Source: an uncultured Fidelibacterota bacterium
GTDB lineage: Bacteria; Fidelibacterota; Marinisomatia; Marinisomatales; Marinisomataceae
DNA: 39,649 nt
Assembly (NCBI GenBank): GCA_913045065.1
Contig: CAJWPX010000001.1
Location: 1-39,649, forward strand
Direction of reading: 5' to 3'
The notes under the pieces were generated by a model. The model was not told the DNA's origin. It worked only from the letters and a program-made list of their open reading frames with translations, and made no database searches. The number at the start of each line of letters is the position of its first letter. Position 1 is the stretch's first letter. A program made the translations under genes and the position numbers. Positions 3,269 to 24,448 of this stretch are shown in pieces.

Positions 3269-3919
3269 ATGAGTTCTCTTCAATCAAGACTTCCCGTTTA
3301 TCTAATAGGTCTTCCTCTCTCTCTATGGATTGTCTTAATTGGTGGGTGGGCTTTCAAGCTTCTTGTGGTATTTTTTATGACAATGGCTTTCATCGAATTT
3401 CTCTCTTTGAGGTCAAAAGATAGCAATTTTATTCTTTGGGCTTTTCTTGGTATATGTTATGTGTGTGTTGGTCTTTCATCTTTACTTGTTTTGCGCAGTA
3501 TCGATAACGAGCTAAATTCTTATTTTACACTTATGTTATTCTGTGGAGTAACGTTAAATGATACCTTTGCGTACATTTTTGGTAGTTTGATTGGTGGAAA
3601 GAAAATTGCGCCATCAATTAGTCCAAACAAGACTTATGCCGGTCTATTGGGTGGCCTGATAGCCTCCATAGTGTTTATATTGCTATTTGATCGCTTTGTT
3701 TTCCCTCTTAGCATAGGTGACCAGTGCATATTCGTATTAATCTTCAGCATTGTTGGATTTTTAGGCGATTTATTGGAATCTTTCTTAAAACGACAAGCGA
3801 ATGTAAAGGATTCGTCTCGTCTATTAATGGGGCATGGTGGTGCACTAGATAGAGTTGATTCTTTAATATTGACATCTCCATTAACATTGTTATATGTTAT
3901 TGGGCAATATTTGTTATGA
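3269..3919 (+). CDS. cdsA: phosphatidate cytidylyltransferase (CDP-diglyceride synthase), short form
   Basis: Polytopic membrane protein with the C-terminal CTP-transferase signature SFLKRQANVKDSSRLLMGHGGALDRVDS. Confidence 0.8.
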   Translation: MSSLQSRLPVYLIGLPLSLWIVLIGGWAFKLLVVFFMTMAFIEFLSLRSKDSNFILWAFLGICYVCVGLSSLLVLRSIDNELNSYFTLMLFCGVTLNDTFAYIFGSLIGGKKIAPSISPNKTYAGLLGGLIASIVFILLFDRFVFPLSIGDQCIFVLIFSIVGFLGDLLESFLKRQANVKDSSRLLMGHGGALDRVDSLILTSPLTLLYVIGQYLL

Positions 3920-5742
3920 GTAAAAAGATCAAATCTATATTAGCAACAGATTGTGGTAGTACAACCACAAAAGCAATTTTAATTGAATGGAAAGACAATC
4001 GTTATCGTCTAACATTTAGAGGAGAAGCCCCCACGACTGTAGAAGCCCCTTTCGAAGATGTTACTAAGGGTGTTTTGAATGCTGTAATGGAAGTAGAAGA
4101 GTTATCTGGCAGAACCATTCTTAATGGGGATGAAATTATTACCCCTGATAATGGAGAAAAAGGGGTTGATATTTATGTGTCCACAAGCTCCGCAGGTGGT
4201 GGATTACAAATGATGGTAGCTGGAGTGGTAAAATCTATGTCTGGTGAAAGCGCAGAACGTGCTGCTTTAGGAGCTGGATCAATCGTTATGGATGTTTTGG
4301 CATCCAATGACGGTCGATTACCTCATGAAAAAATTACTAGAATCCGTCAGTTAAGACCTGATATGATCTTACTATCAGGTGGTACAGATGGAGGAACCAC
4401 AACGCATGTGATGGAATTAGCAGAAATATTAGCAGCTGCTAACCCTAGACCTAGGCTTGGACAGAATTATAAATTACCTGTAATTTATGCTGGCAACAAT
4501 AAGGCACAGGATAATATTCGAAAGACATTGGGCGAGATATCAGACTTAGATATTGTGGAAAATATTCGTCCAGTTCTTGAACAAGAAAATTTGGAACCTT
4601 CTCGAGATAAAATTCATGATTTATTTATGGAACATGTGATGGCACAAGCGCCAGGATATAAAAAATTAATGTCTTGGACAGATGCCCCAATTATGCCAAC
4701 ACCTGGAGCTGTTGGTTCTTTAATTGAAATGATTGCAAAGAAAGAAAATATTTCTGTGGTAGGAGTTGATATTGGTGGAGCAACAACAGATATTTTTTCA
4801 GTGTTTGAAGGAAAGTTTAATCGTACGGTGAGTGCCAATCTTGGAATGAGTTATTCAATTTGTAATGTATTAGCTGAATCTGGTCTAGACAATGTATTAA
4901 GATGGGTTCCTTTTGATATCGATCATAGGAATTTAACAAATCGTATTGGAAATAAAATGATTCGTCCAACTACTGTTCCTCAATCGTTAGAAGAATTGGT
5001 AGTGGAACAAGCAATTGCGAGAGAGGCTTTAAGGCTTTCATTTATTCAACATAAAGCATTTGCTACGAGTCTCAAAGGTGTCCAGTCAGAAAGAACAATT
5101 TCTGATGCCTTTGAACAATCATCTAGTGGACAATCTCTTGTGAACATGATGGAATTGGATTTATTAGTAGGGTCTGGAGGGGTTTTGTCACATGCTCCTC
5201 GTAGACAACAAGCTGCTAGAATGCTTATTGATGCATTTATGCCAGAAGGAATTACGCAGATAGCAGTAGACTCAATTTTTATGATGCCTCAATTAGGAGT
5301 TTTAGCCAATATCGATAGTAAAGAATTAAAAGATGATGCAAACCAAGCAGCTTTAGAAGTTTTTGATAACGATTGTTTAATTAGATTAGGGACATGTATT
5401 ACGCCAATAGGTAAGGCAAAACCAAAGTCTGAAATGGCCCAAATATCTTTGAGTTTTGAAGATGGTTCAACAAAGAAAGTTGCTATTAATGAAGGTTCTT
5501 TAGAAATGCTTGAAGTTCCTTACGAACCAGTAAAGATTGAAATACAACCTTCAAGAGGAATTGATGTAGGAGCTGGAAAAGGAGAGCCATTAAGTTCTAC
5601 AATCTATGGAGGAGTTGTTGGATTAATCTTCGATGGTAGAAATCGACCAATTAACTTACCAAAAGATTCTTCGGAGCGTATCCAAAATTTACTTAATTGG
5701 TCTGCTGCGGTTAATGAATATCCTAAAGGAGATTTGTTCTAA
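3916..5742 (+). CDS. GlmL/MutL-family (hydantoinase-like) actin-fold ATPase with no mutase partner nearby
   Basis: ASKHA phosphate motifs DCGSTTTK (nt 3949-3972) and DIGGATTD (nt 4768-4791) are present, plus GGTDGGTTT and an adenosine-type GSGGVLSHAP. Overall it resembles the glutamate mutase accessory protein family, with an extra beta-rich C-terminal region. Its start overlaps the cdsA stop (ATGA). Confidence 0.7.
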   Translation: MSKKIKSILATDCGSTTTKAILIEWKDNRYRLTFRGEAPTTVEAPFEDVTKGVLNAVMEVEELSGRTILNGDEIITPDNGEKGVDIYVSTSSAGGGLQMMVAGVVKSMSGESAERAALGAGSIVMDVLASNDGRLPHEKITRIRQLRPDMILLSGGTDGGTTTHVMELAEILAAANPRPRLGQNYKLPVIYAGNNKAQDNIRKTLGEISDLDIVENIRPVLEQENLEPSRDKIHDLFMEHVMAQAPGYKKLMSWTDAPIMPTPGAVGSLIEMIAKKENISVVGVDIGGATTDIFSVFEGKFNRTVSANLGMSYSICNVLAESGLDNVLRWVPFDIDHRNLTNRIGNKMIRPTTVPQSLEELVVEQAIAREALRLSFIQHKAFATSLKGVQSERTISDAFEQSSSGQSLVNMMELDLLVGSGGVLSHAPRRQQAARMLIDAFMPEGITQIAVDSIFMMPQLGVLANIDSKELKDDANQAALEVFDNDCLIRLGTCITPIGKAKPKSEMAQISLSFEDGSTKKVAINEGSLEMLEVPYEPVKIEIQPSRGIDVGAGKGEPLSSTIYGGVVGLIFDGRNRPINLPKDSSERIQNLLNWSAAVNEYPKGDLF

Positions 5743-6863
5743 TGGCACATTCGTATACCCCAGGATTAAAGGTTTTAAAAAAGACATTATTTAGCAAAGA
5801 AAGAATCTTACCACTGAAGGGAGAAGTCTTAGTAAAGCAAGGGGATAAATTATCTCCAGAAACGATTGTAGCATCAACTTCTCTTCCAGGGAATATCCAA
5901 ATGTTAAAAGTAAATAATATCCTCAATATTGAACCAGGAGATGTGAAAGCTTGTTTGGTTGTCAAAGAAGGGGATAGTGTTAAAAAAGGTGAAAAAATTG
6001 CTGAAACAGCAGGATTATTAGGTATGTTCAAATCATCTGTTGAATCTCCAACGGATGGTACTGTTGAATCTATTTCAGATAGTACAGGGCGAGTTGTCCT
6101 ACGTGAAGCACCAATTCCAGTAGAAGTAGATGCTTATGTAAGTGGTAGAGTAGGAAAAGTAATTCACAATGAAGGAATTATAGTAACTTCTAACGCTTCT
6201 TTTATCCAAGGTATTTTTGGTATTGCAGGGGAAAAACAAGGGGCATTACAACTGGTTTCTCAAGATCCATCCGAAGAATTAACTGCAGAAAAAATTACAA
6301 ATGATATGGCTGGAAAAATTTTAATCGGAGGAGCATTTTTAAGCTTAGAGGCATATAAAAAAGCAATGTCATGTAATGTTGCTGGGATAGTTATTGGAGG
6401 ATTTAATTATTACGATCTAAAGGAAATATTAGGATACAATTTGGGTGTTGCAATTACCGGAACTGAAAAATTAAAAACAGCACTTATTGTCACTGAAGGA
6501 TATGGATCAATTCCAATGAGTAAGGCAACATTTGATTTATTGAAATCACATAATGGAAAGGATGCATCCATTAATGGAGCAACACAAATAAGAGCTGGGG
6601 TAATCCGTCCAGAAATTGTTATTCCACTTAAAGATGAGAGTAGCGAAGATATATCTTCAAATGTACAAGAAGGAATTCAAAAAGGAAGTGTTGTTAGAGT
6701 AATCCGTTCACCAAATTTTGGAAAAATAGGTACCGTTATTTCTCTGCCAGCCGAATTACAGAAAATGGAATCTGAGACAATGGTGAGAGTAGCAGAAATT
6801 AAAATTGATGATAAAAATTTTTTGATTCCAAGGGCTAACTTAGAGATGGTTGAATTACAATGA
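5742..6863 (+). CDS. hypothetical soluble protein with an N-terminal barrel-sandwich hybrid (NqrA/RnfC-like) domain and a C-terminal KOW-like motif
   Basis: VKEGDSVKKGEKIAE...SPTDGTVESI (nt 5961-6074) fits the hybrid-barrel pattern. KGSVVRVIRSPNFGKIGTV (nt 6681-6737) fits a KOW-like G-x-V-x-V...G-K-x-G-x-V pattern. There are no TM segments and no Cys clusters. Its start overlaps the upstream stop (TAATG). Confidence 0.6.
   Translation: MAHSYTPGLKVLKKTLFSKERILPLKGEVLVKQGDKLSPETIVASTSLPGNIQMLKVNNILNIEPGDVKACLVVKEGDSVKKGEKIAETAGLLGMFKSSVESPTDGTVESISDSTGRVVLREAPIPVEVDAYVSGRVGKVIHNEGIIVTSNASFIQGIFGIAGEKQGALQLVSQDPSEELTAEKITNDMAGKILIGGAFLSLEAYKKAMSCNVAGIVIGGFNYYDLKEILGYNLGVAITGTEKLKTALIVTEGYGSIPMSKATFDLLKSHNGKDASINGATQIRAGVIRPEIVIPLKDESSEDISSNVQEGIQKGSVVRVIRSPNFGKIGTVISLPAELQKMESETMVRVAEIKIDDKNFLIPRANLEMVELQ
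6807..6823 (+). repeat. 17-nt direct repeat copy 1 (GATGATAAAAATTTTTT)
   Basis: It matches nt 6881-6897 exactly. It lies in the last 20 codons of the 5742..6863 CDS and encodes DDKNFL. Confidence 0.9.
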
Positions 6864-7132
6864 ATCAAAATTTAACAATAGATGATAAAAATTTTTTAAC
6901 AAAAATTGCTAAAAAAATTATAGAATTGAAACTAGTAACTCCTGCTATTTTTTTTCTTGAGATGGCAAAACCATTAAATTTTATTGGTAGCCAAACTATG
7001 GTATTTTTTGGTCCAATAGTTAGTGCATTTGTCAAAACAGATGGTTATTATAGGGCTGCAGAATTATTTGAAAGTAACGTCAGCGTAGAATTTTTAATCT
7101 CTGAATTGGAAAGATTGGGTAAAAATGGATAA
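6860..7132 (+). CDS. small hypothetical protein with a central hydrophobic hairpin
   Basis: 90-aa ORF whose start overlaps the upstream stop (ATGA). The hydrophobic core is VTPAIFFLEMAKPLNFIGSQTMVFFGPIVSAFV. It shares the heptapeptide IDDKNFL with the C-terminus of the upstream protein. Confidence 0.55.
   Translation: MNQNLTIDDKNFLTKIAKKIIELKLVTPAIFFLEMAKPLNFIGSQTMVFFGPIVSAFVKTDGYYRAAELFESNVSVEFLISELERLGKNG
6881..6897 (+). repeat. 17-nt direct repeat copy 2 (GATGATAAAAATTTTTT)
   Basis: It matches nt 6807-6823 exactly. It lies in codons 8-13 of the 6860..7132 CDS and encodes DDKNFL in that gene's own, different frame. Confidence 0.9.
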
Positions 7133-7988
7133 CAAACGTGTTCTAATATATGCAGGAGGTATTCTAGGAATTGTTATCCTGACCTTGATCTTATCCCAGT
7201 TTCATATCTTTAATTCAAGTCGATCATTTATGTTTATTGTTTTGCTTACCATTATAATGGTATTGTTTAATGAAATTCAAAACGCAAGAAAAGATTCTGA
7301 TTCAATTTTTTTACGTACAATTCCTGGATTAAAAGCTGTTGAAGAAGCTGTAGGTCGTTCCACCGAAATGGGTAGGCCAATTCTTTATGTTCCAGGCATT
7401 ATGGATATGAACGAAGTTGAAACAGTTGCTGGTGTTATTATTCTAGGACATGTTGCACAAATGACTGCGCAATATGAAACTGGTCTTGATGTACCTGTTG
7501 CAAGATCTATTGTAATGCAAGCAGCACGGGAGTCCTGTAAAGAAGCATATCTTAGCCAAGGGCGACCAGAAATGTTTAATGAAGATATGGTTCATTATAT
7601 TACCGATGATCAATTTGCTTATGCAGCTGGGGTAAATGGTATAATGCAAAGAGATAAACCTGCTGCATGTCTGTATATGGGTAAGTTTTATGCAGAATCA
7701 CTCTTATTTGCGGAAACAGGAAACGGGATTGGTGCAATTCAGATTGCTGGAACAGCATCCCAAGCACAAATTCCTTTCTTTGTTACAGCTTGTGATTATA
7801 CTTTAATGGGGGAAGAATATTTTGCAGCAAGTGCTTACCTTTCTAGAAAACCTGAATTAATTGGTGGGGTTAAAACACAAGATACAGTCAAGTTGATGTT
7901 GATTGGACTAATCATTGTTTGTTTGGTAATGCGTGCGTTATTTGATCTTGATATTGTTTCGTTTAATCTTTTGGATATGATTGGATAA
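7125..7988 (+). CDS. hypothetical bitopic membrane protein (2 N-terminal TM, ~190-aa soluble domain, 1 C-terminal TM)
   Basis: TM-like stretches are VLIYAGGILGIVILTLILSQF, FMFIVLLTIIMVLF and a C-terminal LMLIGLIIVCLVMRALF. It overlaps the upstream gene by 8 nt. No known motif recognised. Confidence 0.6.
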   Translation: MDNKRVLIYAGGILGIVILTLILSQFHIFNSSRSFMFIVLLTIIMVLFNEIQNARKDSDSIFLRTIPGLKAVEEAVGRSTEMGRPILYVPGIMDMNEVETVAGVIILGHVAQMTAQYETGLDVPVARSIVMQAARESCKEAYLSQGRPEMFNEDMVHYITDDQFAYAAGVNGIMQRDKPAACLYMGKFYAESLLFAETGNGIGAIQIAGTASQAQIPFFVTACDYTLMGEEYFAASAYLSRKPELIGGVKTQDTVKLMLIGLIIVCLVMRALFDLDIVSFNLLDMIG

Positions 7989-7992
7989 TAGT

Positions 7993-8922
7993 ATGATTTG
8001 GAAAAGATATATACCAATTGCTATTGTAGGATTTTTCGGATCTCTCACTCTATTTGGTTGGTTCATTGAGAACGAAGGTATCAAAGCTTTTATTGATGAT
8101 GATGCAACTCAATGGTATGATATTATTGCCAGTTTTGCGATTTTTCTTGGAGCATTAAATTTATTAAAACTACAATTTTTAAAAGTTCTTAAACGACAAT
8201 CAGGTTGGGAATATAGTGTTGTTGCAATTCTTTCTTTCTTTATTGTTTTTGTTATAGGATTCTTTATGAGAGGTGCTTTTGTTGTCGATATTCCTAATAC
8301 CGATATACAGAGTACATACTTTACACAAGGAGCTGCAGAAGAAGCGGTTAATCACTTAAAAGATTCAGGTATTACTGCAAGTATTACACCTGCACAATGG
8401 GGAGCCCACATACAAACAGAAGGAGGGCTATTTAAATGGATGTTTGATAACATTTTTACCCCTCTTTCAGCAACTATGTTTGCTCTATTAGCGTTCTATG
8501 TTGCGTCAGCATCGTATCGTGCGTTTAGGGCAAGGAATTTCGAAGCAACATTACTCTTATTAGCTGGTATTATTATTATGATTGGAAGAGTTCCGATTGG
8601 TAGTCTTATTTCAAGCTGGATGATTATGTATTTATTGGTATTGGTAATTGGAATTCTTATTAATACATACTTTAGAAGTCGTCAACTTGTATTTGGTTGG
8701 GTTGCATTAGGGTTAATAGGTGTGACAGTTCTTGGCTCATTTATGGGTTGGCCTATAGATCAACCTGCAGTATTTTATCTGCCTGCTTTACAGGAATGGA
8801 TTTATACAGTACCTAATTTAGCTGGAGCACGAGCTATTATGATTGGTATTGGGTTAGGGGTAATTGTAACCAGTCTGAGATATATATTTGGACTCGAAAA
8901 ATCATATATAGGTGATCAATGA
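7993..8922 (+). CDS. hypothetical polytopic membrane protein (~8 TM) with a ~70-aa loop after TM3
   Basis: Hydrophobic segments run throughout (IAIVGFFGSLTLFGWF, IIASFAIFLGALNLL, VVAILSFFIVFVIGFF, MFALLAFYVASASY, LLLLAGIIIMIG and others). I chose the ATG at 7993; the track uses the TTG at 7981. Confidence 0.6.
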   Translation: MIWKRYIPIAIVGFFGSLTLFGWFIENEGIKAFIDDDATQWYDIIASFAIFLGALNLLKLQFLKVLKRQSGWEYSVVAILSFFIVFVIGFFMRGAFVVDIPNTDIQSTYFTQGAAEEAVNHLKDSGITASITPAQWGAHIQTEGGLFKWMFDNIFTPLSATMFALLAFYVASASYRAFRARNFEATLLLLAGIIIMIGRVPIGSLISSWMIMYLLVLVIGILINTYFRSRQLVFGWVALGLIGVTVLGSFMGWPIDQPAVFYLPALQEWIYTVPNLAGARAIMIGIGLGVIVTSLRYIFGLEKSYIGDQ

Positions 8923-9767
8923 GATTTCTTGAAGACATTATCGTAAAGTTTGGATCAGTTGATAGAAGGGTAATCTTTGTATTAATTGGATTAGCAGTAC
9001 TTGTCCCATTGTTGAACCCTATTGATCTTGCAATACGACCAACACCATCCTCTCAAAGAGTTTATGATGCTGTTGATAGTATACCTGATAATTCTAATGT
9101 TTTAATCTCATTTGATTATGGGCCTAGCACTAGACCAGAAATTCATCCAATGACACTAGGTATTATGCGCCATATTCTTAGTCAAGATCGTGGACATAAG
9201 ATTTATATAACTTGCTTGTGGCCTGATGGATTATATATGGCAAAAGATGCCTTAAAAATCATTAATGAAGAATATGATCTAGTTGAACATGAAGACTATG
9301 TTTTGCTAGGGTTTAGGCCTGGAAATGAAGCAATTGTAAAAGGTTTAGCAAGCGATTTACGTAAAGTGTTTACCGTTGATGCAGCACAAACGCCAATAAG
9401 TGAGATTCCAATGATGGAAGGAATAAATAATCTAAACGATTTCCAATTTATGTTTACAGGTTCTGCGGGATATCCTGGTACCTTTGAATGGGTACAATAT
9501 GGAGCAGATCCAACAGGCGTTCCTCTTTCATCTGGTACAACTTCTATTCAAGTAAATGAAGTGATGCCTTACGTACAAAGTGGCCAACTAAAAGGAATTC
9601 TTGCAGGTATGCCTGGTGCAGCAGAATATGAAAAATTAATTGATACTCCTGGTATTGCTATTCAAGGAATGGCAGCACAATCGTATGGACATGTTGTTAT
9701 TGTCCTATTTATCATTTTGGGAAATTTAGCTTACTTTATTACCGAACGAAGAGAGAGGAAATACTAA
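8919..9767 (+). CDS. hypothetical bitopic membrane protein (N-terminal TM, ~220-aa soluble domain, C-terminal TM)
   Basis: N-terminal VIFVLIGLAVLVPLL and C-terminal HVVIVLFIILGNLAYFI flank a soluble domain. The architecture parallels the 7125..7988 product. Its start overlaps the upstream stop (ATGA). Confidence 0.6.
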   Translation: MRFLEDIIVKFGSVDRRVIFVLIGLAVLVPLLNPIDLAIRPTPSSQRVYDAVDSIPDNSNVLISFDYGPSTRPEIHPMTLGIMRHILSQDRGHKIYITCLWPDGLYMAKDALKIINEEYDLVEHEDYVLLGFRPGNEAIVKGLASDLRKVFTVDAAQTPISEIPMMEGINNLNDFQFMFTGSAGYPGTFEWVQYGADPTGVPLSSGTTSIQVNEVMPYVQSGQLKGILAGMPGAAEYEKLIDTPGIAIQGMAAQSYGHVVIVLFIILGNLAYFITERRERKY

Positions 9768-9768
9768 G

Positions 9769-10542
9769 GTGTCATTTTCAACAATACTCGGTGCTTGGAT
9801 TGCTGCATTTCTTACGTTAGGAATTTTCTCATATCTCTATAAAGATAATCCATTTTATAAGATAGCCGAACATGTATTTGTTGGTGTATCTGCTGCTTAT
9901 TGGGCTGCCACATTTTATTGGACTCAAATTTATCCTAATTTATTTGGTAGGTTATTTGCTGTAGATAGTCCATTTGCAAGCATGTATGTTATTGATAAAG
10001 GCCATGAATACAATGGGTTATATTTCTTTCCGTTGCTTTTAGGCATTATGATGTTATTAAGTGTATTCAAACAGATTAATTGGATGGCAAGATGGGGTAT
10101 TGCTTATACGGTTGGAATTGCTGCTGGATTGAAAGCTTTTGGATATTTAAGCTCCAATGTTATTAGCCAAATTAAATCTACTGCAGTAGAATTGTTTAGT
10201 GGAGAATTATCATTCTTTGCAATGTCAGGCGATAGTATTTTCAATAATATTGTTATTTTTATTGGCACAATAAGTGCTCTAATGTACTTTTATTTCTCAA
10301 GAGAACAGTCTGGAGCATATGGACGTTTTACGCGTTTAGGAGTTTACTTTCTAATGATTAGTTTTGGTGCATCATTTGGGTTTGCTGTTATGGGCCGAAT
10401 TTCTTTGTTAATTGGGCGTTTTAATGACTTAATCTTATTTTCTAATCCATCGTACAATTATGGTACGTTTTGGATGTTAGGATTGATTATAGTAGTGCTT
10501 GGTTATTGGTCATTCCAAAATCCTGAAAGAACAGAGGGATAA
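9769..10542 (+). CDS. hypothetical polytopic membrane protein (~7 TM)
   Basis: The GTG start lies 1 nt after the upstream stop. Hydrophobic segments include ILGAWIAAFLTLGIFSYLY, VFVGVSAAYWAATFYW, FFPLLLGIMMLLSVF, IVIFIGTISALMYFYF and FWMLGLIIVVLGYWSF. Confidence 0.6.
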   Translation: MSFSTILGAWIAAFLTLGIFSYLYKDNPFYKIAEHVFVGVSAAYWAATFYWTQIYPNLFGRLFAVDSPFASMYVIDKGHEYNGLYFFPLLLGIMMLLSVFKQINWMARWGIAYTVGIAAGLKAFGYLSSNVISQIKSTAVELFSGELSFFAMSGDSIFNNIVIFIGTISALMYFYFSREQSGAYGRFTRLGVYFLMISFGASFGFAVMGRISLLIGRFNDLILFSNPSYNYGTFWMLGLIIVVLGYWSFQNPERTEG

Positions 10543-10546
10543 TTGA

Positions 10547-11893
10547 ATGCAGTCATCTGATATTAGAAAAGTTATTGGTAACAGTATCTTAGCAGATGGG
10601 ATGTCCCCAATCATTGATTTAGAAAAATCTCATGGTTCTTGGCTAGTAGATAAAGTGACTGGGAAAGAATATCTTGATTTATTTTCAATGTTCGCTTCAT
10701 TATCTGTTGGATACAACCATCCTTATGTATTGGAGCAATCAGAGCGCTTAAAAATTGCTGCTATTAATAAGCCTACCAACTCGGATGTCTATTCTTTAGA
10801 ACTGGCAGAATTTATGGAAACATTTAAACGTGTTGCCCAACCTAGCTATTTACCTCATGCTTTTTTTATTGAAGGAGGAACATTGGCTGTGGAGAATGCG
10901 CTCAAGGTTGCTTTTGATTGGAAGCGTAGAAAAAATTTAGCTAAAGGAAGTAATGTAAAAGGGGAGAAAGTAATCCATTTTAAAGAATGTTTTCATGGTC
11001 GTTCAGGATATACAATGTCATTAACCGATTCTCCCGATAAAAGGAAAACCATGTATTTTCCTAAATTTGATTGGCCAAGAGTTACTAATCCAAAAATTAC
11101 GTTTCCTTTAGAGAAAAATTTAGATCAAGTGGTTGCATTAGAGAACCAGGCTTTCACAGAAATAAAAGATGCTATTTTTGCCAATCCAGACAATATTGCT
11201 TCTATGATTATTGAGCCGATTCAAGGAGAGGGAGGCGATAATCATTTTCGATGTGAGTTTTTCCAAAAATTGAGAGAAATTGCCAATGAAAATGATATCA
11301 TGCTTATTTATGATGAAGTGCAAACAGGGATTGGCGTTACAGGAAGAATGTGGGCACACCAACATTTCGCAGCACACGAATGTAGCGATTGTTGTTGTGG
11401 GGAAGATTCATCTGCTAAACCTGATATTATTGCATTTGGGAAGAAAACTCAGGTATGCGGTATTGCAGTTAGCAATCGCGTGGAAGAAGTAGAGAACCAT
11501 GTATTTGAAGAATCCAGTCGAATAAATTCCACATGGGGTGGCAATTTGGTTGATATGGTGCGGCTGACCATCTATCTAGAATTAATAGAAAAAGAGAACC
11601 TAGTAGAAAAAGCTGAAAAAACTGGAGATTATTTGTTGAATTGTTTATACACACTTCAAAAACAATACCCAAATCTTGTTTCTAATGCGCGAGGAAGAGG
11701 ATTGTATTGTGCATTTGATCTTCCTTCTGGAGATAAAAGAGATAAATTGGGAGCATTGCTTTTAGAAGAAGGGTCAATTCTATTAGGATCGGGACATCAA
11801 TCTATACGTTTTCGTCCTCATTTAAATGTAACAACTGAAGATATTGATTTTGGGATAGATTGTTTTAAAAAAGCTCTAGATAAGTTAGGGTAA
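10547..11893 (+). CDS. lat: L-lysine 6-transaminase (class III PLP aminotransferase)
   Basis: The N-terminus GMSPIIDLEKSHGSWLVD...FASLSVGYNHP, plus IEPIQGEGGD, YDEVQTGIGVTG, IIAFGKKTQVCG (PLP lysine) and INSTWGGN, match my recollection of characterised LATs. It contains an extra Cys-rich segment at nt 11369-11416. Confidence 0.8.
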   Translation: MQSSDIRKVIGNSILADGMSPIIDLEKSHGSWLVDKVTGKEYLDLFSMFASLSVGYNHPYVLEQSERLKIAAINKPTNSDVYSLELAEFMETFKRVAQPSYLPHAFFIEGGTLAVENALKVAFDWKRRKNLAKGSNVKGEKVIHFKECFHGRSGYTMSLTDSPDKRKTMYFPKFDWPRVTNPKITFPLEKNLDQVVALENQAFTEIKDAIFANPDNIASMIIEPIQGEGGDNHFRCEFFQKLREIANENDIMLIYDEVQTGIGVTGRMWAHQHFAAHECSDCCCGEDSSAKPDIIAFGKKTQVCGIAVSNRVEEVENHVFEESSRINSTWGGNLVDMVRLTIYLELIEKENLVEKAEKTGDYLLNCLYTLQKQYPNLVSNARGRGLYCAFDLPSGDKRDKLGALLLEEGSILLGSGHQSIRFRPHLNVTTEDIDFGIDCFKKALDKLG

Positions 11894-12585
11894 TGTCTAA
11901 TAAAGGTAGATTATATATTATCGCCACTCCGATTGGCAATTTAAAAGATTTCACATTTCGAGCTGTCGATATTTTGCAAGAGGTTGATCATATTTTTGCC
12001 GAAGACACGCGTACATCTATTACATTAATGAAACATTATAATATCACAACCAATTTAGATAGTTATCACGAACATAATAAAACTCAAAAGATTCCTAAAA
12101 TTATCAAATTATTAAACGAGGGAAAAAACATTGGATTAATTTCTGATGCTGGGACTCCAACCATTAGTGATCCAGGGTACAAATTAATCAGAGCATGTAT
12201 TGACGAAGAAATTAATATTATTCCTATCCCAGGAGCTTCCGCTGTAACAGCAGCCCTGAGCGCATCAGGACTTCCATCTGATTCGTTCTTTTTTTTGGGG
12301 TTTCTTCCGCAAAAAAAAGGAAGAAAAAAGAAAATTTCTTTTTTAAAGAGTTTAGAAAATACTATAATTATATTTGAGAGTCCTCATCGATTATTAAAGA
12401 CGTTGAGAGAATTACATGATGAATTAGGTGAAAGACCGATTATTGTTGCAAGAGAGTTGACAAAATTATACGAGGAAATTATACGAGGAAATTTTAACAG
12501 TGTAATTGAATTTTTTGAATCAAAGAAAGTAAAAGGTGAAATAGTAATTATTATTGGAAAAGATGATGACAGAATCTACTTCTAG
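11893..12585 (+). CDS. rsmI: 16S rRNA (cytidine1402-2'-O)-methyltransferase
   Basis: LYIIATPIGNLKDFTFRAVDILQEVDHIFAEDTR and SDAGTPTISDPG are typical of RsmI (tetrapyrrole methylase fold). Its start overlaps the lat stop (TAATG). Confidence 0.85.
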   Translation: MSNKGRLYIIATPIGNLKDFTFRAVDILQEVDHIFAEDTRTSITLMKHYNITTNLDSYHEHNKTQKIPKIIKLLNEGKNIGLISDAGTPTISDPGYKLIRACIDEEINIIPIPGASAVTAALSASGLPSDSFFFLGFLPQKKGRKKKISFLKSLENTIIIFESPHRLLKTLRELHDELGERPIIVARELTKLYEEIIRGNFNSVIEFFESKKVKGEIVIIIGKDDDRIYF

Positions 12586-13195
12586 AGGAAAATTTATTAC
12601 ATTTGAAGGCATTGATGGCTGTGGAAAAACTACGCAAGCAGCAATGCTGTTAGAATTGCTGGAAAAACAAGAATTATCAATTAGTTTTGTAAGAGAACCT
12701 GGTGGCGATCCCATCTCAGAATCGATTCGCAAACTACTATTGCATTCAGAAGAAATAATGTCTGATCGTGCAGAAGCATTATTAATGATTGCAAGTAGAG
12801 CACAATTAACCGATAAAGTTATTCTTCCTTATTTGATGGATGGAAGGTGGGTGGTTGCAGATCGTTACGCCGATTCTACGCTTGCATATCAAGGTGGAGG
12901 CAGAGGATTAAGTAGTACTGCTCTTGAAGAAATTAATTATTTCGGAACATATACCCTTAAACCTGATTTAACTTTCTTTATTGATATTTCTGTTGAAGAA
13001 GCAAACAAAAGAGTGTCTGTTTCTAGAGATAGGATTGAAAAAGAAGGAGTAGAATTTCAGCAAAGAGTGCGTGATTTTTATACAAGCCTACACACAAAAG
13101 AACCAGAACGTGTGATACTAATTAATGGAGAGAATTCAGTTGATGCAATTCATAGCGAAATTTGGTCCATTGTAAATGAAAAATTAATGCCATGA
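12563..13195 (+). CDS. tmk: dTMP (thymidylate) kinase
   Basis: P-loop FEGIDGCGKTTQ, the VADRYADSTLAYQG motif and a lid region are present. I chose the ATG at 12563; the track uses the TTG at 12554. The gene overlaps the 3' end of rsmI. Confidence 0.9.
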   Translation: MMTESTSRGKFITFEGIDGCGKTTQAAMLLELLEKQELSISFVREPGGDPISESIRKLLLHSEEIMSDRAEALLMIASRAQLTDKVILPYLMDGRWVVADRYADSTLAYQGGGRGLSSTALEEINYFGTYTLKPDLTFFIDISVEEANKRVSVSRDRIEKEGVEFQQRVRDFYTSLHTKEPERVILINGENSVDAIHSEIWSIVNEKLMP

Positions 13196-14868
13196 AGCAG
13201 TTAAAAAAATTATCTTTTATAGCCTTAATAATTACAGTTTGTTTCGTTGGATTATTACGAAGCCAACAGCTTGATATTTATCGTGAAATTGCACGATCTC
13301 AACAGCAAATTATGACGGTTTATAAGTATCTTGTTACTGAGTATATCCATGAATTAGATATCCCACAATTAACATCAAAGATTATCAATTCGATGTTAGA
13401 AAATTTTGACCCATATACAGAATATTATGAAGAGAAAGATTTGGAAGATTTAAATATCAAAACTACAGGGGAATTCAGTGGAGTAGGGTTGCAGATTTAT
13501 ATATATGAAGATAAACTAACAGTGGTGGGACCAATCGAAGGTTCTCCTGCATTTCGTGCTGGTATTTTTACTGGGGATCAAATTACCCATATTGATGGGG
13601 TTGCTACTGATGGAATGGAGCTAAAAGATTCGACCAACAAGATTCGAGGGAAAAAAGGTACAGATGTAGTATTAACTATTAGAAAACCGATTACAGAAGA
13701 AGTGCATGATTATACCATTAATCGTGACATTATTGTTGTCAAAGATATTCCATATTATGGGATGATTGATCCAGCGGTTGGATACCTCAGAATAACAAAT
13801 TTTTCAGAAAATACTCCAAGAGAAGTAAATAATGCTTTTCTGTCCTTAATGAACCAAGGAACAGAAAATATTATTATTGACTTAAGAGATAATCCTGGAG
13901 GATTGCTTTCCTCATCATTGGATGTATTAGATTTGATGTTGCCAAAAGATTTAGAAATGGTTTCAACAAAGGGACGTGGTGGAAAAATATTAAAAAAATT
14001 CAGATCATTAAATAGAGCATTGCTACCTCAGGATATTGATATTACAGTCTTAATTAATGAAGGAAGTGCATCTGCAAGCGAGATTGTTGCTGGTGTGTTG
14101 CAAGATCATGATAGAGCGGTGATTGTTGGATCACCATCATTTGGAAAAGGATTGGTCCAATCTGTGATTGCAATCAACAATAGCTCTGCATTAAAAATCA
14201 CCAATTCAAAATATTATATTCCAAGTGGACGCACCCTACAGAAAAGAGAATACATTGATAAAGAATTGCTTACAGACAAAGCAGCGATTGAAGATTCATT
14301 ATTTACTACAAAAGCAGGACGAAAAGTATTTGGAGGTGGAGGTATTGCTCCTGACGTTCTAGTGGAGAACAAAGAAGCATACCCATTAGCTGTCTCGATT
14401 TTAAGGAATGGAGGATTTTTCCTTTTTGTACAACAAACAAGCGATCAATATGATTCATTGGATGCAGTAGCCAATGACCTTACTCTAATGAACAAATTTG
14501 CTGATTTTATTCAAGAAAACGATATTGCAGGATATGTGGATGGTAAAGGCGATTTAGACAAAGCAAAAGAAAAACTAATTAAGGAAGATGAACCAAAAAA
14601 TATATTCTTAAACAATGCGTTTAATGTCATTGAAAACCAAATTAAGAAATCACAGACTGCAATGCTTGATGATGAAAAAGATTTTATTAGAAAAATGTTA
14701 TTAGGAGAATTTGCTTTCTATTATGATGGAGACAAAGGGAGATATGAATTCTTGCTTCAAGGGGATAAAACAGTGCAAAAATCACTAGAAATCCTTCTTG
14801 ATAATGCCTTGTATTCTTCTATACTAACTGCCCCTGAAGAACAACAAATTGCGTCAACGGAAAATTAG
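13192..14868 (+). CDS. S41-family carboxyl-terminal processing peptidase with a PDZ domain
   Basis: There is an N-terminal signal or TM segment. The PDZ region is GVGLQI...GSPAFRAGIFTGDQITHIDG. The catalytic Ser context is NEGSASASEIVAGVLQD and the Lys context is FGKGLVQ. Confidence 0.85.
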   Translation: MKQLKKLSFIALIITVCFVGLLRSQQLDIYREIARSQQQIMTVYKYLVTEYIHELDIPQLTSKIINSMLENFDPYTEYYEEKDLEDLNIKTTGEFSGVGLQIYIYEDKLTVVGPIEGSPAFRAGIFTGDQITHIDGVATDGMELKDSTNKIRGKKGTDVVLTIRKPITEEVHDYTINRDIIVVKDIPYYGMIDPAVGYLRITNFSENTPREVNNAFLSLMNQGTENIIIDLRDNPGGLLSSSLDVLDLMLPKDLEMVSTKGRGGKILKKFRSLNRALLPQDIDITVLINEGSASASEIVAGVLQDHDRAVIVGSPSFGKGLVQSVIAINNSSALKITNSKYYIPSGRTLQKREYIDKELLTDKAAIEDSLFTTKAGRKVFGGGGIAPDVLVENKEAYPLAVSILRNGGFFLFVQQTSDQYDSLDAVANDLTLMNKFADFIQENDIAGYVDGKGDLDKAKEKLIKEDEPKNIFLNNAFNVIENQIKKSQTAMLDDEKDFIRKMLLGEFAFYYDGDKGRYEFLLQGDKTVQKSLEILLDNALYSSILTAPEEQQIASTEN

Positions 14869-14874
14869 TGATTT

Positions 14875-16602
14875 ATGGCATCTGAATCACATGCCGGTTT
14901 TTCCATAAGTTCTTTTTTTAAAGACAATAATATTTCAACTGTATTTACGCTCTGCGGAGGACACATCTCACCCATTCTAGTTGGGTGCGAATCTGAAGGA
15001 ATTAATATTATTCAAGTAAGAGATGAAGCTTCTGCAGTGTTTGCTGCAGATGCTACTTCAAGAATAACGGACACCATTGGTGTTGCAATTGTGACTGCGG
15101 GTCCGGGAGTGACCAATACAATGACAGCAATTAAAAATGCACAATTAGCTCAATCTCCTTTGTTATTGATTGGTGGAGCAGCTGCAACCTTATTAAAAGG
15201 AAAAGGTTCGTTGCAAGATATTGATCAATTATCATTAATGAAACCACATGTTAAATCCGCAACTTCTGTAAAAAGATGTAGGGATATTATTCCGGTACTC
15301 CATAATGCTATTAATCGTGCTGTTTCTGATGTGCCTGGCCCTGTATTTGTTGAACTTCCTATTGATTTGCTCTATCCAGAAGAAATGATTCGAGAACAGC
15401 ATTTGTCACAAGTTTCTTCAAATTCATTGGTTAATAAAGTGTTTAAATGGTATGTAGAACAACATTTAAAGAATGTATTTTCTAAAAGAAAATCAATCAT
15501 CATCCCTCGGAAAAAAAGCATTAAGAATGCAAACCAATCTGCAATTGATAAAGCGGCGATTACAATTCATGAATCAGTAAGACCAGTTGTATTGCTTGGA
15601 AATCAAATTATCCATAATAAAGAGTTTTTGGATCGGTTTATTCAAAGTTTAAAAAAACTATCTATTCCAACCTATACATCAGGAATGGCTCGAGGATGTC
15701 TTGGTAAAGAAGATTCATTTTTCTTGCGTCATAATCGTAAACATGCCTTAAAAAATGCAGATGTTGTGATTACCGCAGGCGTTCCACTAGATTTTCGTTT
15801 AGGGTATGGATCTTCCATCAATTCTGATGCAAAGATTATTGCCTTAAACAAAAGCAGAAAAGATCTTGTAAAAAATCGAAGACCATACCTACAGCTTAAA
15901 GGAGATCCATCAAGAAGTATTTATGAGATTGCTAAGATTATCAATACCCCAGATTGTAAAGTGTGGTTAGAAGAATTACAACAAATGGAACAGGAAAGAG
16001 ATAATGAAATTTTAGCACAAGCAGAAATGGACACAGAATTTGTTAATCCGATTAAAGCCTGTACTACCATCAATGATGTATTGGATGAAAATAGTATTAT
16101 TATTGCCGATGGAGGTGATTTTGTAGGAACAGCTTCTTATGTTTTACGTCCTCGAGCTCCATTAAGTTGGTTGGATCCAGGGGCTTTTGGAACACTAGGG
16201 GTTGGCGGTGGATTTGCCTTAGGAGCAAAAAGTGCGTTTCCAGACAAAGAAGTATGGATTATTTATGGGGATGGAGCCTGCGCATTTAGCTTAGCAGAAT
16301 TTGATACCTTTGTTCGTCATAAATTGCCCGTGATTGCTATAGTAGGGAATGACGGTTCTTGGCAACAAATTGCTCGAGAACAAGTCGCAATGCTCGGTAG
16401 CGACATCGGAACCACCCTAAACGATACCAATTATCATCAGGTAGCAGAGGGGTACGGAGGAAAAGGATTTTTGGTAACCGAAATTTCCCAGTTACGTGAT
16501 GTTTTATTACAAGCCAAGTCTGATGCAAAAACGGGAACTCCCGTCCTCATTAATATGCGTATCGGGAAGACGGACTTTAGAAAAGGATCGATTTCGATCT
16601 AA
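14875..16602 (+). CDS. thiamine diphosphate-dependent enzyme, acetolactate-synthase-like (ILVBL/2-hydroxyacyl-CoA lyase-like)
   Basis: The N-terminal Pyr domain reads FTLCGGHISPILVGCE...AVFAADATSRITDTIGVAIVTAGPGVTNTMTAIKNAQLAQSPLLLIGGAA. The TPP motif is GDGACAFSLAEFDTFVRHKLPVIAIVGNDGSW. Confidence 0.8.
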   Translation: MASESHAGFSISSFFKDNNISTVFTLCGGHISPILVGCESEGINIIQVRDEASAVFAADATSRITDTIGVAIVTAGPGVTNTMTAIKNAQLAQSPLLLIGGAAATLLKGKGSLQDIDQLSLMKPHVKSATSVKRCRDIIPVLHNAINRAVSDVPGPVFVELPIDLLYPEEMIREQHLSQVSSNSLVNKVFKWYVEQHLKNVFSKRKSIIIPRKKSIKNANQSAIDKAAITIHESVRPVVLLGNQIIHNKEFLDRFIQSLKKLSIPTYTSGMARGCLGKEDSFFLRHNRKHALKNADVVITAGVPLDFRLGYGSSINSDAKIIALNKSRKDLVKNRRPYLQLKGDPSRSIYEIAKIINTPDCKVWLEELQQMEQERDNEILAQAEMDTEFVNPIKACTTINDVLDENSIIIADGGDFVGTASYVLRPRAPLSWLDPGAFGTLGVGGGFALGAKSAFPDKEVWIIYGDGACAFSLAEFDTFVRHKLPVIAIVGNDGSWQQIAREQVAMLGSDIGTTLNDTNYHQVAEGYGGKGFLVTEISQLRDVLLQAKSDAKTGTPVLINMRIGKTDFRKGSISI

Positions 16603-22156: not shown

Positions 22157-22684
22157 ATGAATATAGAAGATATTAAAAAGACGATTACAATAGTTCATGA
22201 CTACCCAATTCCTGGAATTATTTTTAGGGATATTACAACTCTGTTAGAAGATCCTGAAGCATTTAAAGCAACTGTAGATATTATGGTAGAAAATGTTTCC
22301 GATTTGTCATTTGATAAAATTGTTGGAGTTGAATCAAGAGGATTTTTTTGGGCAGCTCCAATTGCTTATGCATTATCAAAACCTTTTGTATTGGCACGTA
22401 AACCTGGAAAATTGCCACGCAGAACAGTAAGCAAGCCGTTTACCTTAGAATATGGTACCAATAGTGTTCATATTCATGCTGATTCAGTCCACAAAGGAGA
22501 TACTATTTTAATTGTTGATGATTTGATTGCTACGGGCGGTACAGCTATTGCAACCGCTGATTTGTGCCAAGAGTTAGGCGCAACTACTATCCATACACTT
22601 TCTTTAATAGATTTACCAGAGTTAGGTGGATCAAAGAAAATAGCAGATAAGTATGGTGAAGTTCGAACCTTGATTGATTACTAG
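22157..22684 (+). CDS. apt: adenine phosphoribosyltransferase
   Basis: PGIIFRDITTLL, GVESRGF and the PRPP loop ILIVDDLIATGGTAIA are present, and the 175 aa length is typical. Confidence 0.9.
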   Translation: MNIEDIKKTITIVHDYPIPGIIFRDITTLLEDPEAFKATVDIMVENVSDLSFDKIVGVESRGFFWAAPIAYALSKPFVLARKPGKLPRRTVSKPFTLEYGTNSVHIHADSVHKGDTILIVDDLIATGGTAIATADLCQELGATTIHTLSLIDLPELGGSKKIADKYGEVRTLIDY

Positions 22685-24396: not shown

Positions 24397-24448
24397 AGAC
24401 AAATATACATTATAATAAATATAATTTTTAGATAAATTATTCATCAAG

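Follow-up and report, generated by a model that had tools for sequence, protein, structure and literature searches.

A probable new type of ATP-driven machine of the cell envelope: a recurrent bacterial gene set combining a MutL-family actin-fold ATPase with DUF6754 membrane cassettes

Seven consecutive genes (g1–g7) of a marine Marinimicrobia (SAR406) bacterium, at positions 3916–10542 (+ strand) of the window, by which we mean the whole 39,649-nucleotide stretch of DNA that was analysed, probably encode an ATP-driven machine of the cell envelope that is of a new kind, and the set is found again in hundreds of species of bacteria belonging to many phyla. It corresponds to no system described in the literature searched. 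An earlier note on this DNA had read the block as an uncharacterised ATP-driven membrane machine; that reading is supported, and neither the family searches nor the synteny comparison refuted it. We infer ATP-driven action because the ASKHA (actin-fold) nucleotide-binding motifs of g1 are invariant. In its fuller form, to which we tentatively give a little less than an even chance, the reading is one of two modules, in which an ATPase pair would drive a membrane complex for periplasmic work. The gene content and order, modularity, predicted topology, conservation pattern and absence of known motifs described below are observations.

All seven ORFs are present at the coordinates given earlier and, as had been claimed, are tightly packed on one strand; overlaps or gaps of at most 4 nt join them, the junctions from cdsA through g1–g7 to lat measuring −4, −1, −4, −8, −8, −4, +1 and +4 nt. 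The adjacency is not due to chance, because 160 independent genomic and metagenomic loci (160 g4 genes; 80 genome loci) show these genes again with their order preserved. Across many phyla the genes are syntenic independently of cdsA and lat, and no gene family besides the system's own is common to the loci across phyla. The envelope association suggested by cdsA, dagK and rlpA persists as a weak hint, since that neighbourhood is confined to Marinimicrobia. The single seven-gene unit, on the other hand, had to be refined to two separable modules, g1-g2(-g3) and g4-g7.

Within the second module gene order is strictly collinear, the run being complete for 127 of the 160 g4 genes: g5 always follows g4, g6 follows g5 and g7 follows g6. 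Contig ends account for the incomplete runs, except at a handful of loci with g4 alone (L065, L075) and where two ORFs are split. Given this collinearity and the joint divergence of the four genes, they are best explained as a single unit. Genes g1 and g2 are almost always neighbours; both are found in 103 of the 160 loci, at most 200 bp apart in 80 of these 103, and g2 is best explained as an obligate partner of g1. The two modules are linked in Marinimicrobia, Planctomycetota, Zixibacteria, Ignavibacteriales, Fermentibacteria and others, with g1-g2 placed relative to g4-g7 in at least four kinds of arrangement, including upstream, divergent and downstream; such recurrent linkage in varied arrangements would be best explained by the modules belonging together. 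Of the 31 loci anchored on g4 whose flanks are complete, 15 have no g1-g2 within 10 kb, and of the 28 anchored on g2, 5 have no g4 nearby. Some lineages therefore keep the modules apart or may be missing one of the two, which counts against the machine reading.

The first gene of the block, g1 (3916–5742, + strand), encodes a 608-aa cytoplasmic ASKHA ATPase with no predicted transmembrane (TM) helices, whose proposed membership of the GlmL/MutL family was borne out by a match of Pfam MutL (PF13941) to residues 8–469 (416 bits, E 2e-124). Nucleotide motifs are located at residues 12–19 (nt 3949–3972), 285–292 (nt 4768–4791) and 421–425 (nt 5176–5190), and are followed by an additional, conserved domain at the C-terminus, 140 aa long (residues 470–608, nt 5323–5739). 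The phosphate-1, phosphate-2 and adenosine motifs, as well as this C-terminal domain, are invariant across phyla, where mean column identity is 65%; with a between-phyla identity of 58–66%, compared to 30–45% for cdsA even within Marinimicrobia, g1 exceeds all other genes of the block in conservation and stands well above the flanking housekeeping genes. Pfam models of MreB, FtsA and PilM gave zero matches to g1, and the NCBIfam model of actin-like FcmB gave a non-significant one (E 0.06). Equivalence to GlmL was rejected, as g1 scores below the cut-offs of all NCBIfam GlmL/Or-4 models, be they equivalog or subfamily (NF040745, NF040744 and TIGR01319; 222.8 bits vs 475, 210.8 vs 600 and 158.2 vs 204.05).

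GlmL/MutL is the reactivating chaperone of coenzyme-B12-dependent glutamate mutase (PMC4682846), with which g1 shares the ASKHA fold and nucleotide motifs over the PF13941 region. It differs in its sub-cut-off scores and additional domain and in never lying beside mutase subunits; unlike GlmL/MutL, it is paired with g2 and a membrane complex. B12 mutase subunits (glmS/glmE, oraS/oraE, kamD/kamE) are absent from the neighbourhood in the window, as well as from the recurrent gene families of the 160 loci. The MutL/GlmL family is known solely in the role of soluble chaperone to a B12 enzyme (PMC4682846), which counts against the machine reading.

The partner protein g2 (5742–6863, + strand; 373 aa, cytoplasmic) consists of an all-β N-terminal part with a barrel-sandwich hybrid (residues ~11–171), a middle α/β domain (~190–295) and a C-terminal KOW/SH3-like barrel (~315–370). 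Pfam RnfC_N matches residues 70–116 (E 6e-7), a segment also matched by the NQRA_N model; Biotin_lipoyl matches as well, and KOW does so weakly at residues 314–334. Foldseek searches with the AF2 model of g2 (pLDDT 82) returned domain-level matches alone, to NusG/Spt5 KOW domains, BCCP, the fusion protein BesA and PA-like ectodomains, every one with a whole-model TM-score below 0.25. The KOW-like C-terminal motif seen previously is recovered by Pfam, weakly, and by Foldseek, whereas of the suggested NqrA/RnfC likeness there remains a generic barrel-sandwich hybrid domain, Foldseek having matched neither NqrA nor RnfC. The hairpin of the hybrid barrel has no MKM motif, and its lysine is not conserved among orthologues. 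Invariant in these orthologues (alignment A5) are the N-terminus MAxxYTPGL, the motif NGATQIRAGVxRPE and a further, enzyme-like motif, QGIFGxGGE.

In the membrane module, g4 (7125–7988, + strand; 287 aa) belongs to DUF6754 (PF20539; E 3e-110, 367.9 bits vs a gathering cut-off of 27), a family without known function. Rather than being simply bitopic, as had been supposed, it has three TM helices, two near the N-terminus and one at the C-terminus, between which lies a cytoplasmic domain of ~190 aa. The cytoplasmic domain is Rossmann-like and highly conserved (residues ~57–248, nt 7293–7868), and 36 columns of the protein are invariant among 34 diverse sequences. The AF2 model of g4 has a pLDDT of 70, which falls below 50 in the most conserved stretch (residues 165–227); that the most conserved segments of both g2 and g4 are left unplaced in the monomer models is as expected for interface segments. 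The enzyme-like invariant residues C223, D224, E230 and E231 would equally fit a catalytic role, which counts against the machine reading.

These residues are central to an alternative that we regard as unlikely, in which the DUF6754 domain, perhaps together with g2, would be catalytic and g1 would serve as its ATP-dependent activase or reactivase, by analogy with GlmL/MutL, EutA and DdrA for B12 enzymes, while g5–g7 would couple the reaction to the membrane through, for example, substrate access or ion movement. Such an arrangement would agree with the place of g1 in a family of glutamate mutase reactivating chaperones (PMC4682846), with the many invariant polar residues of g4, with the QGIFGxGGE and NGATQIRAGVxRPE motifs of g2 and with a conservation far higher in the cytoplasmic than in the membrane parts. 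It is at odds with the absence of B12, Fe-S, flavin, biotin and lipoyl motifs from the seven proteins, the lack of mutase subunits in all 160 loci, the score of g1 far below the GlmL equivalog cut-offs plus its extra domain, and the Foldseek search of the g4 model, which gave no significant match to an enzyme or any other structure (best E-value 0.29).

The remaining subunits of the membrane module are g5 (7981–8922; 313 aa), g6 (8919–9767; 282 aa) and g7 (9769–10542, GTG start; 257 aa), all on the + strand. The polytopic g5, for which translation may in fact begin at the ATG at 7993, has 8 hydrophobic segments, matching the earlier estimate of about eight, but its conserved core is of 6 TM helices, two segments at residues 206–254 being a Marinimicrobia-specific 2-TM insertion. 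Described before as a second bitopic protein, g6 instead carries an N-terminal (N-in, with a conserved DRR) and a C-terminal TM helix that flank a periplasmic α/β domain of ~206 aa (nt 9045–9662). The polytopic g7 is predicted to have 6–7 TM helices, in line with the earlier estimate of about seven, and is not homologous to g5. Single-sequence and per-member scans of Pfam, searches of NCBIfam and PADLOC and profile searches of PDB sequences found no relative of g5 (38-sequence profile included), g6 (alignment A3 profile) or g7 (alignment A4 profile), so that DUF6754, of unknown function, is the only match among proteins 4–7, none of which falls in a characterised transporter or respiratory family. 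Sporadic per-member matches were to TMD0_ABC in 8 of 38 g5 orthologues (best E 2e-4) and, in the g5/g7 scans, to ABC2_membrane_3 in one orthologue. PADLOC anti-phage defence models matched none of the seven proteins.

A motif scan of all seven proteins found no Walker A, ABC signature, CxxC, DxHxxG, [ST]GA[ST] or biotin/lipoyl motif, in agreement with the claim that ABC Walker, Fe-S, DxHxxG and flavinylation motifs are missing. Cysteine is absent from g5 and g7, and none is conserved in their alignments; the predicted TM helices also contain no conserved acidic residue, which argues against ion-motive coupling. Known identities were rejected as follows: ABC transporter (no Walker A/LSGGQ, no significant ABC ATPase or permease match), Rnf/Nqr oxidoreductase (g2 match partial; no Fe-S/flavin motifs and no RnfD/G/E/A or NqrB-E homologues), Na+-translocating decarboxylase (no biotinyl-lysine motif, no OadB/GcdB-like membrane subunit match) and, for g4–g7, Tol-Pal/ExbB-ExbD-TonB (no MotA_ExbB or ExbD match, no conserved TM acid), genuine tolQ/tolR being separate neighbour genes in some loci.

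What g2 shares with Rnf/Nqr is ~50 residues of a widespread fold, the RnfC_N/NQRA_N hybrid, which also occurs in biotinyl carriers and membrane fusion proteins. Together with the alternation of ~6-TM proteins and single-domain periplasmic ones, loosely reminiscent of RnfD/G/E/A, this would be compatible with a very diverged Rnf/Nqr-like, Na+-decarboxylase-like or ABC-2-like complex that has drifted beyond recognition. We consider such an origin highly improbable, given that the g4–g7 profiles match no solved Rnf, Nqr, decarboxylase, ABC, Lpt, Mla or Tol chain at E-values up to 5, that the confidently modelled g2 retrieves no NqrA/RnfC chain, and that conserved cysteines are missing from g5/g7, as are flavinylation, biotinylation and Walker motifs from the set.

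Between g2 and g4 lies g3 (6860–7132, + strand; 90 aa), a likely membrane-associated connector in which a hydrophobic hairpin marked by proline and glutamate is followed by a helical tail. The hairpin reported earlier is present, but falls below the standard TM threshold; P28, E34 and P52 are invariant and P38 nearly so. Without family matches in Pfam and NCBIfam, or in PADLOC and the PDB, g3 has orthologues in 37 genome loci out of 80 and in numerous loci from metagenomes; depending on lineage it adjoins g1 or g4. In many phyla there is an eighth gene, c18, which encodes a 2-TM protein.

The modules also differ in copy number: Zixibacteria and Ignavibacteriales have up to three g4–g7 cassettes with a single g1-g2 pair. 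Cassettes 1, 2 and 3 are old positional orthologues across genomes, same-position copies of g6 being 50–75% identical between genomes and copies within one genome 28–54%, and the four genes of one cassette diverge together. Conservation is highest in the cytoplasmic parts, which favours the machine reading, and decreases from g1 to g4 and g2, then g6 and g7, then g5 and g3; between paralogous cassettes, the DUF6754 cytoplasmic domain is the best-conserved part (49–69%).

In the machine that we propose, module 1 would be cytoplasmic or peripheral and comprise g1 and g2 with g3, joined by c18 in many phyla, and module 2 would be a four-subunit inner-membrane complex of g4, g5, g6 and g7, presumably held together physically. 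The g1-g2 pair would dock on the cytoplasmic DUF6754 domain of g4, which is nearly invariant, as well as on conserved cytoplasmic turns of g5–g7; ATP binding and hydrolysis by g1 would power a conformational cycle, which the membrane complex would relay to its periplasmic face, formed by the g6 domain and, in other phyla, also by FN3 or β-propeller domains on g4 or g5. There the cycle would move or extract a bulky envelope component, the nature of which is a guess, and one ATPase pair could serve several paralogous membrane cassettes.

The proposed cycle would therefore work like LptB2FGC, LolCDE and FtsEX, with an actin-fold ATPase replacing the ABC ATPase. By functional analogy, these systems and MacAB have a similar general layout of a cytoplasmic ATPase, two ~6-TM subunits and periplasmic-domain subunits, with the work taking place on the periplasmic side; they differ in their ABC ATPase, the actin-fold one here being devoid of Walker and signature motifs, and g5 and g7 are related neither to any solved permease nor to each other. 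Like ECF transporters, the system has a shared energising module; the ECF components are unrelated to these proteins, and each cassette here has four subunits. We know of no actin-fold ATPase that powers a transporter, which counts against the machine reading. To our knowledge, the Hsp70 motors (TIM23-PAM, Sec61-Sec63-BiP) are the sole well-known actin-fold ATPases that dock on membrane complexes and power movement through them; g1 is not an Hsp70, a J-domain and a substrate-binding domain are both lacking, the membrane subunits of the two bear no relation to each other, and the present system is bacterial and at the inner membrane, with a cytoplasmic ATPase.

An extracytoplasmic working face is the best explanation for the accessory domains of other lineages: some g4 homologues carry a signal peptide and an FN3 or PQQ/BamB-like β-propeller domain before the TM helix, and in one g5 homologue the loop at residues 105–156 has FG-GAP-like repeats. 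Lineage-dependent extracytoplasmic domains would also suit a trans-envelope sensor, in which those of g4, g5 and g6 perceive a ligand or the state of the envelope and regulate g1-g2, with g2, whose terminal barrel resembles those of NusG and Spt5, as the output on nucleic acid or the ribosome. There is little to recommend this option, for the fold of the KOW-like barrel is small and generic, Pfam and NCBIfam reveal no recognisable kinase, receiver, GGDEF or HTH domain, and Marinimicrobia g4 has no sizeable extracytoplasmic domain while all else is kept.

Apart from the machine reading, the fold of g1 raises the possibility, in our view a minor one, of a membrane-tethered cytomotive or scaffolding system, in which g1 would polymerise like MreB, FtsA or ParM, g2/g3 would act as tethers and g4–g7 would be positioned, possibly for division or envelope constriction by analogy with MreB-MreC-MreD-RodZ. 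The pairing of an actin-fold protein with one bitopic and one polytopic partner is reminiscent of mreBCD, and genes for such partners likewise accompany those for MreB, FtsA and PilM (MreB-MreC-MreD-RodZ, PilM-PilN-PilO), proteins whose relation to g1 in sequence does not extend beyond the fold. The between-phyla identity of g1 is unusually high, at a level that is common in proteins making contacts over many surfaces; upstream of the block the window contains an rlpA-like gene, and the division-associated tolQRAB-pal-cpoB operon is found directly downstream of g2 in 13 loci. The MutL/GlmL/hydantoinase-A branch of ASKHA proteins, however, is not known to polymerise, and up to three anciently diverged cassettes per genome better fit substrate or partner specificity than a single scaffold.

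The recurrence of envelope genes beside the system, tol-pal in these 13 loci and TonB genes in others, favours the machine reading. Against it, such proximity is confined to particular lineages, and clusters of this type are commonly found in genomes. In Fermentibacteria a TonB-dependent receptor gene with ExbB, ExbD and TonB genes is located downstream of g7, and in WOR-3 the genes for ExbB, ExbD and TonB are a few kb away, on the downstream side of g7.

The block of interest comprises g1 (3916-5742, 608 aa), encoding a MutL/GlmL-type ASKHA ATPase, g2 (5742-6863, 373 aa), encoding its partner, g3 (6860-7132, 90 aa), encoding a small hairpin protein, and a four-gene membrane cassette made of g4 (7125-7988, 287 aa), g5 (7981-8922, 313 aa), g6 (8919-9767, 282 aa) and g7 (9769-10542, 257 aa); the ORF listing places all seven on the plus strand, bearing out the uninterrupted run described in an earlier note. 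Successive junctions, starting at cdsA and ending at the aminotransferase gene downstream of the block, measure −4, −1, −4, −8, −8, −4, +1 and +4 nt. The overlap of g5 with g4 (8 nt) is that of its TTG start at 7981, four codons downstream of which lies an in-frame ATG (7993) that may be the real start; g7 begins with GTG at 9769. As the earlier note had cautioned, the tight spacing is not enough to define an operon, because the first 17 kb of the window is all on one strand and tightly packed, and scans for promoter-like sites (53 versus 73.8 in shuffled controls, that is, fewer than in the controls) and terminator-like sites (11 versus 8.2, within chance) are uninformative.

Chance adjacency can nevertheless be rejected, since the gene order recurs across phyla. 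A DUF6754 profile scan of one genome per GTDB species, anchored on g4, identified at least 590 species, and the best 80 loci include Marinimicrobia, Zixibacteria, WOR-3, Eisenbacteria, Ignavibacteriales, Fermentibacteria, Stahlbacteria, Aegiribacteria, Rifleibacterium and others, as well as Planctomycetota (Phycisphaerales, Planctomycetaceae and Isosphaeraceae); protein searches added Latescibacteria and Acidobacteriota names. These 80 loci contain 103 g4 genes, and 88 g4-g5-g6-g7 runs are complete; except at a few loci with g4 only, the others are truncated at contig ends. When all neighbouring ORFs of the same loci were clustered, g1-g7 were the sole families common across phyla; cdsA, dagK, the aminotransferase gene and rsmI are neighbours in Marinimicrobia only, and the g4-g7 order is kept outside this group in the absence of cdsA. 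A second scan, of metagenome contigs and anchored on g2, found at least 598 relatives; among the best 80, loci with enough flanking DNA contain g1 in 24 of 28 cases and g4 in 23 of 28. Taken over both sets, g1 and g2 are both present in 103 of 160 loci, with a gap of at most 200 bp in 80 of the 103. The source of the window is a Candidatus Marinimicrobia (SAR406/Fidelibacterota) bacterium, the name borne by nearly identical proteins, and one of these loci (L001) is 98% identical. At 50% identity DUF6754 comprises more than 2,000 clusters, and the g2 and g4 searches returned at least 8,000 matches each.

The genes belong to a coherent, ancient and widespread set built from two modules, the g1-g2 ATPase module and the g4-g7 cassette. 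Marinimicrobia have the arrangement g1-g2-g3-g4-g7; Planctomycetota, Fermentibacteria and some Zixibacteria have g3-g1-g2-g4-g7, which may be preceded by a further gene, c18; in L035 and L046 the cassette comes first and g3-g1-g2 follows; and in loci of the Zixibacteria/Ignavibacteriales type, cassettes are divergent from g1-d3-g2, where d3 is an additional family. The cassette stands alone in WOR-3 and others (15 of the 31 loci with full flanks). Moreover, Zixibacteria and Ignavibacteriales can possess two or three tandem cassettes together with a single g1-g2 pair. For all four cassette genes the closest relative is the cassette at the same position in other genomes (g6, for instance, is 50-75% identical to same-position copies versus 28-54% to paralogues of its own genome), so that the cassettes must be ancient and their four genes have diverged as a unit; the best-conserved part among paralogous cassettes is the DUF6754 domain (49-69%). 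The c18 product, of about 150 aa with two TM helices and a weak bacterial-PH match, probably belongs to the system as its eighth component: its gene lies directly before g3 in 25 loci outside Marinimicrobia (L024, 8610-9113; L043, 5700-6173; L076, 4917-5372; L083, 6373-6828; L151, 11135-11593; and 20 further loci). The window has no significant copy of it, a c18-like match at 36547-37536 (E = 0.006) being rejected as insignificant. Toxin-antitoxin-like genes are found inside two clusters with the gene order undisturbed (L081, 4259-4878; L045, 10915-11802), one insertion being a nucleotidyltransferase and HepT-like pair and the other a set of small genes.

The set shows no relation to any described system. 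Searches of Pfam, NCBIfam and PADLOC with all seven proteins recovered only MutL, fragmentary RnfC_N/KOW matches and DUF6754, while g3 and the membrane subunits g5, g6 and g7 (all but g4) matched nothing in these collections and have no Pfam family at all. Profiles of g1, g2, g4, g5, g6 and g7, built from 15-39 diverse orthologues, gave nothing significant against all PDB sequences; when 38-39 orthologues of each of g5, g6 and g7 were scanned individually against Pfam, the matches were all weak and scattered, an effect of hydrophobic composition. Comparison by hhalign of g5 with g7, g4 with g6 and g4 with g2 found no homology in any pair. Walker A, LSGGQ, CxxC, DxHxxG, [ST]GA[ST], MKM and DKA motifs are absent from all seven proteins, in agreement with the ABC, Fe-S, flavinylation and B12-binding signatures that the earlier note had found missing, and g3, g5 and g7 contain no cysteine. 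An ABC transporter is rejected on the first two motifs, a biotin-dependent decarboxylase on MKM, and a defence system on the lack of any PADLOC match to the seven proteins. Neither the system nor DUF6754 is described in the full-text literature searched, whose sole relevant paper gives GlmL its chaperone annotation; the earlier judgement that the block is not assignable to any described system is upheld by family, PDB-profile, Foldseek and literature searches alike. That the system was overlooked until now is explained by its distribution, chiefly in phyla that are uncultured or little studied.

Judged by its motifs, g1 is an intact nucleotide-binding actin-fold protein. It matches Pfam MutL (PF13941) over aa 8-469 (E = 2e-124), and the ASKHA phosphate-1 (D12-K19), phosphate-2 (D285-D292) and adenosine (G421-S425) motifs are invariant, as is much of an extra C-terminal domain of 140 aa. 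GlmL/MutL is described as a chaperone that reactivates glutamate mutase (PMC4682846). From GlmL itself g1 differs in score (it lies far under all three NCBIfam GlmL-type cut-offs), architecture and context, and a mutase operon is rejected on the cut-offs, the context and the absent DxHxxG. A membrane enzyme with a GlmL-like activase is a rival reading that would sit well with the MutL match and less well with these three departures from GlmL. In every comparison g1 is the most conserved protein (92% down to 64% identity within Marinimicrobia, 58-66% to other phyla), followed by g4 (51-56%), g2 (43-52%) and then g7, g6, g5 and g3 (27-45%); it also exceeds the adjoining housekeeping genes, the flanking cdsA reaching just 30-45% even within Marinimicrobia. 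This conservation, together with the wide spread and abundance of the system and its retention in the streamlined genomes of marine SAR406, points to an important function.

Pfam matches of g2 are restricted to barrel-sandwich hybrid models (RnfC_N at aa 70-116, Biotin_lipoyl and NQRA_N) and a weak KOW. Its AlphaFold2 model is confident (pLDDT 82), with an all-β N-terminal region, a central α/β part and a C-terminal KOW/SH3-like barrel; Foldseek against the PDB gave domain-level matches only, to NusG/Spt5 KOW domains, biotinyl carriers, the fusion protein BesA and PA-like ectodomains, and these include no NqrA or RnfC chain. Of the "NqrA/RnfC-like" description in the earlier note, the barrel-sandwich hybrid domain therefore stands and the likeness to NqrA or RnfC does not. 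An Rnf/Nqr system is likewise rejected by this result and by the absence of CxxC and [ST]GA[ST]; a highly diverged Rnf/Nqr-like complex, the corresponding rival, would suit the hybrid domain but not these findings.

The membrane cassette evolves as a four-protein unit. Over its full length g4 is a DUF6754 protein (E = 3e-110), and in its homologues from other phyla a signal peptide leads into an extracytoplasmic region that varies (100-700 aa, with Pfam matches to FN3 or a PQQ/BamB-like β-propeller in some); the DUF6754 domain, about 200 aa long, is framed by one TM helix before it and another at the C-terminus, an arrangement that predicts a cytoplasmic DUF6754 domain. A sensor, another rival, would fit such variable external regions; in the window's g4, a vestigial first TM helix is predicted to replace the external domain. 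Of mediocre quality (pLDDT 70) and poor in the most conserved region, the g4 model places a Rossmann-like α/β domain between the TM helices; Foldseek found nothing significantly similar to this model. Invariant segments coincide with low-confidence regions of the models (g2 aa 1-8 and 283-286; g4 aa 165-227) and may be interface segments. In g6 the predicted layout puts a periplasmic domain of about 206 aa between two TM helices, the second of them C-terminal, with a conserved DRR motif on the cytoplasmic side ahead of the first; g7 has 6-7 predicted TM helices. The roughly eight helices previously counted in g5 are present, but the conserved family core has just six; the two extra hydrophobic helices (aa 206-254; window 8596-8742) are poorly conserved and occur only in Marinimicrobia versions. 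No predicted TM helix contains a conserved acidic residue. Homologues of g5 of about 600 aa bear large insertions in the loop predicted to be extracytoplasmic (aa 105-156 of g5): a helical repeat region in L078 (4182-6020) and, in L050 (14761-16536), about seven FG-GAP/VCBS-like repeats, an assignment that is motif-only because the insert matched no PDB sequence.

In 13 loci of the Zixibacteria/Ignavibacteriales type (L053, L054, L067, L096, L113, L114, L136 at 9178-16358, L137, L154 and others), g1-d3-g2 lies directly upstream of a complete tolQ-tolR-tolA-tolB-pal-cpoB set, d3 (also c36) encoding a protein of about 260 aa that is secreted and anchored at its C-terminus. Fermentibacteria have a TonB-dependent receptor with ExbB, ExbD and TonB downstream of g7; in WOR-3, the ExbB, ExbD and TonB genes follow g7 by a few kb, and beyond them come one more gene and a TonB-dependent receptor. 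A Zixibacteria chromosome (CP070824; L075, 9500-11887) encodes a stand-alone 795-aa fusion of DUF6754 with a C-terminal periplasmic Peptidase_S49 (SppA-type), which is not followed by g5-g7 and adjoins pilin-like genes. Though lineage-specific, these surroundings point to the envelope, and the recurrent tol-pal and TonB adjacency, with cdsA in Marinimicrobia, marks the system as a candidate for steps of envelope trafficking that are still unresolved in these phyla.

Tentatively, and as something possible rather than probable, the system may represent an unrecognised class of primary-active envelope machine, conserved in at least 590 species (Fidelibacterota/Marinimicrobia, Zixibacteria, Planctomycetota, Ignavibacteriales, WOR-3, Fermentibacteria, Latescibacteria, Eisenbacteria and others) and powered by an actin-fold (MutL-type ASKHA) rather than an ABC, AAA+ or P-type ATPase, which would serve envelope biogenesis or trafficking, for example of a lipid, lipoprotein or other bulky component between the inner membrane and the periplasm or outer membrane. 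In such a machine g1-g2 would bind the cassette from the cytoplasmic side, with the DUF6754 domain as the main docking site, and ATP turnover by g1 would be passed to the periplasmic face, moving or extracting an envelope component; a single motor could serve several specialised four-subunit cassettes. Its working mode would resemble that of LptB2FGC, LolCDE and FtsEX, whereas its motor would be actin-fold, and the sharing of one motor by several cassettes would recall ECF transporters. A cytoskeletal or scaffolding system is a less likely rival that the fold of g1 would also suit; the anciently diverged tandem cassettes, up to three per genome, speak rather for specificity of substrate or partner. 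If the envelope-machine reading is true, an actin-fold ATPase, known so far only as a soluble chaperone of a B12 enzyme, would drive a four-subunit inner-membrane complex, a new energy-coupling principle in bacterial membrane biology.

Elsewhere in the window, the first ORF (96-863, 255 aa) carries a TPR_6 repeat of the CpoB/YbgF kind and is not significantly similar to the cpoB genes that neighbour the system in other lineages. The 393-aa product of 33190-34371, which has RTX calcium-binding repeats, Big_9 and cadherin-like domains, is probably secreted, as an adhesin or surface protein. Among the few minus-strand genes interrupting the otherwise plus-strand window are those for an alkyl-sulfatase-type metallo-β-lactamase protein (22681-24525) and a sodium:alanine symporter (34384-35946).
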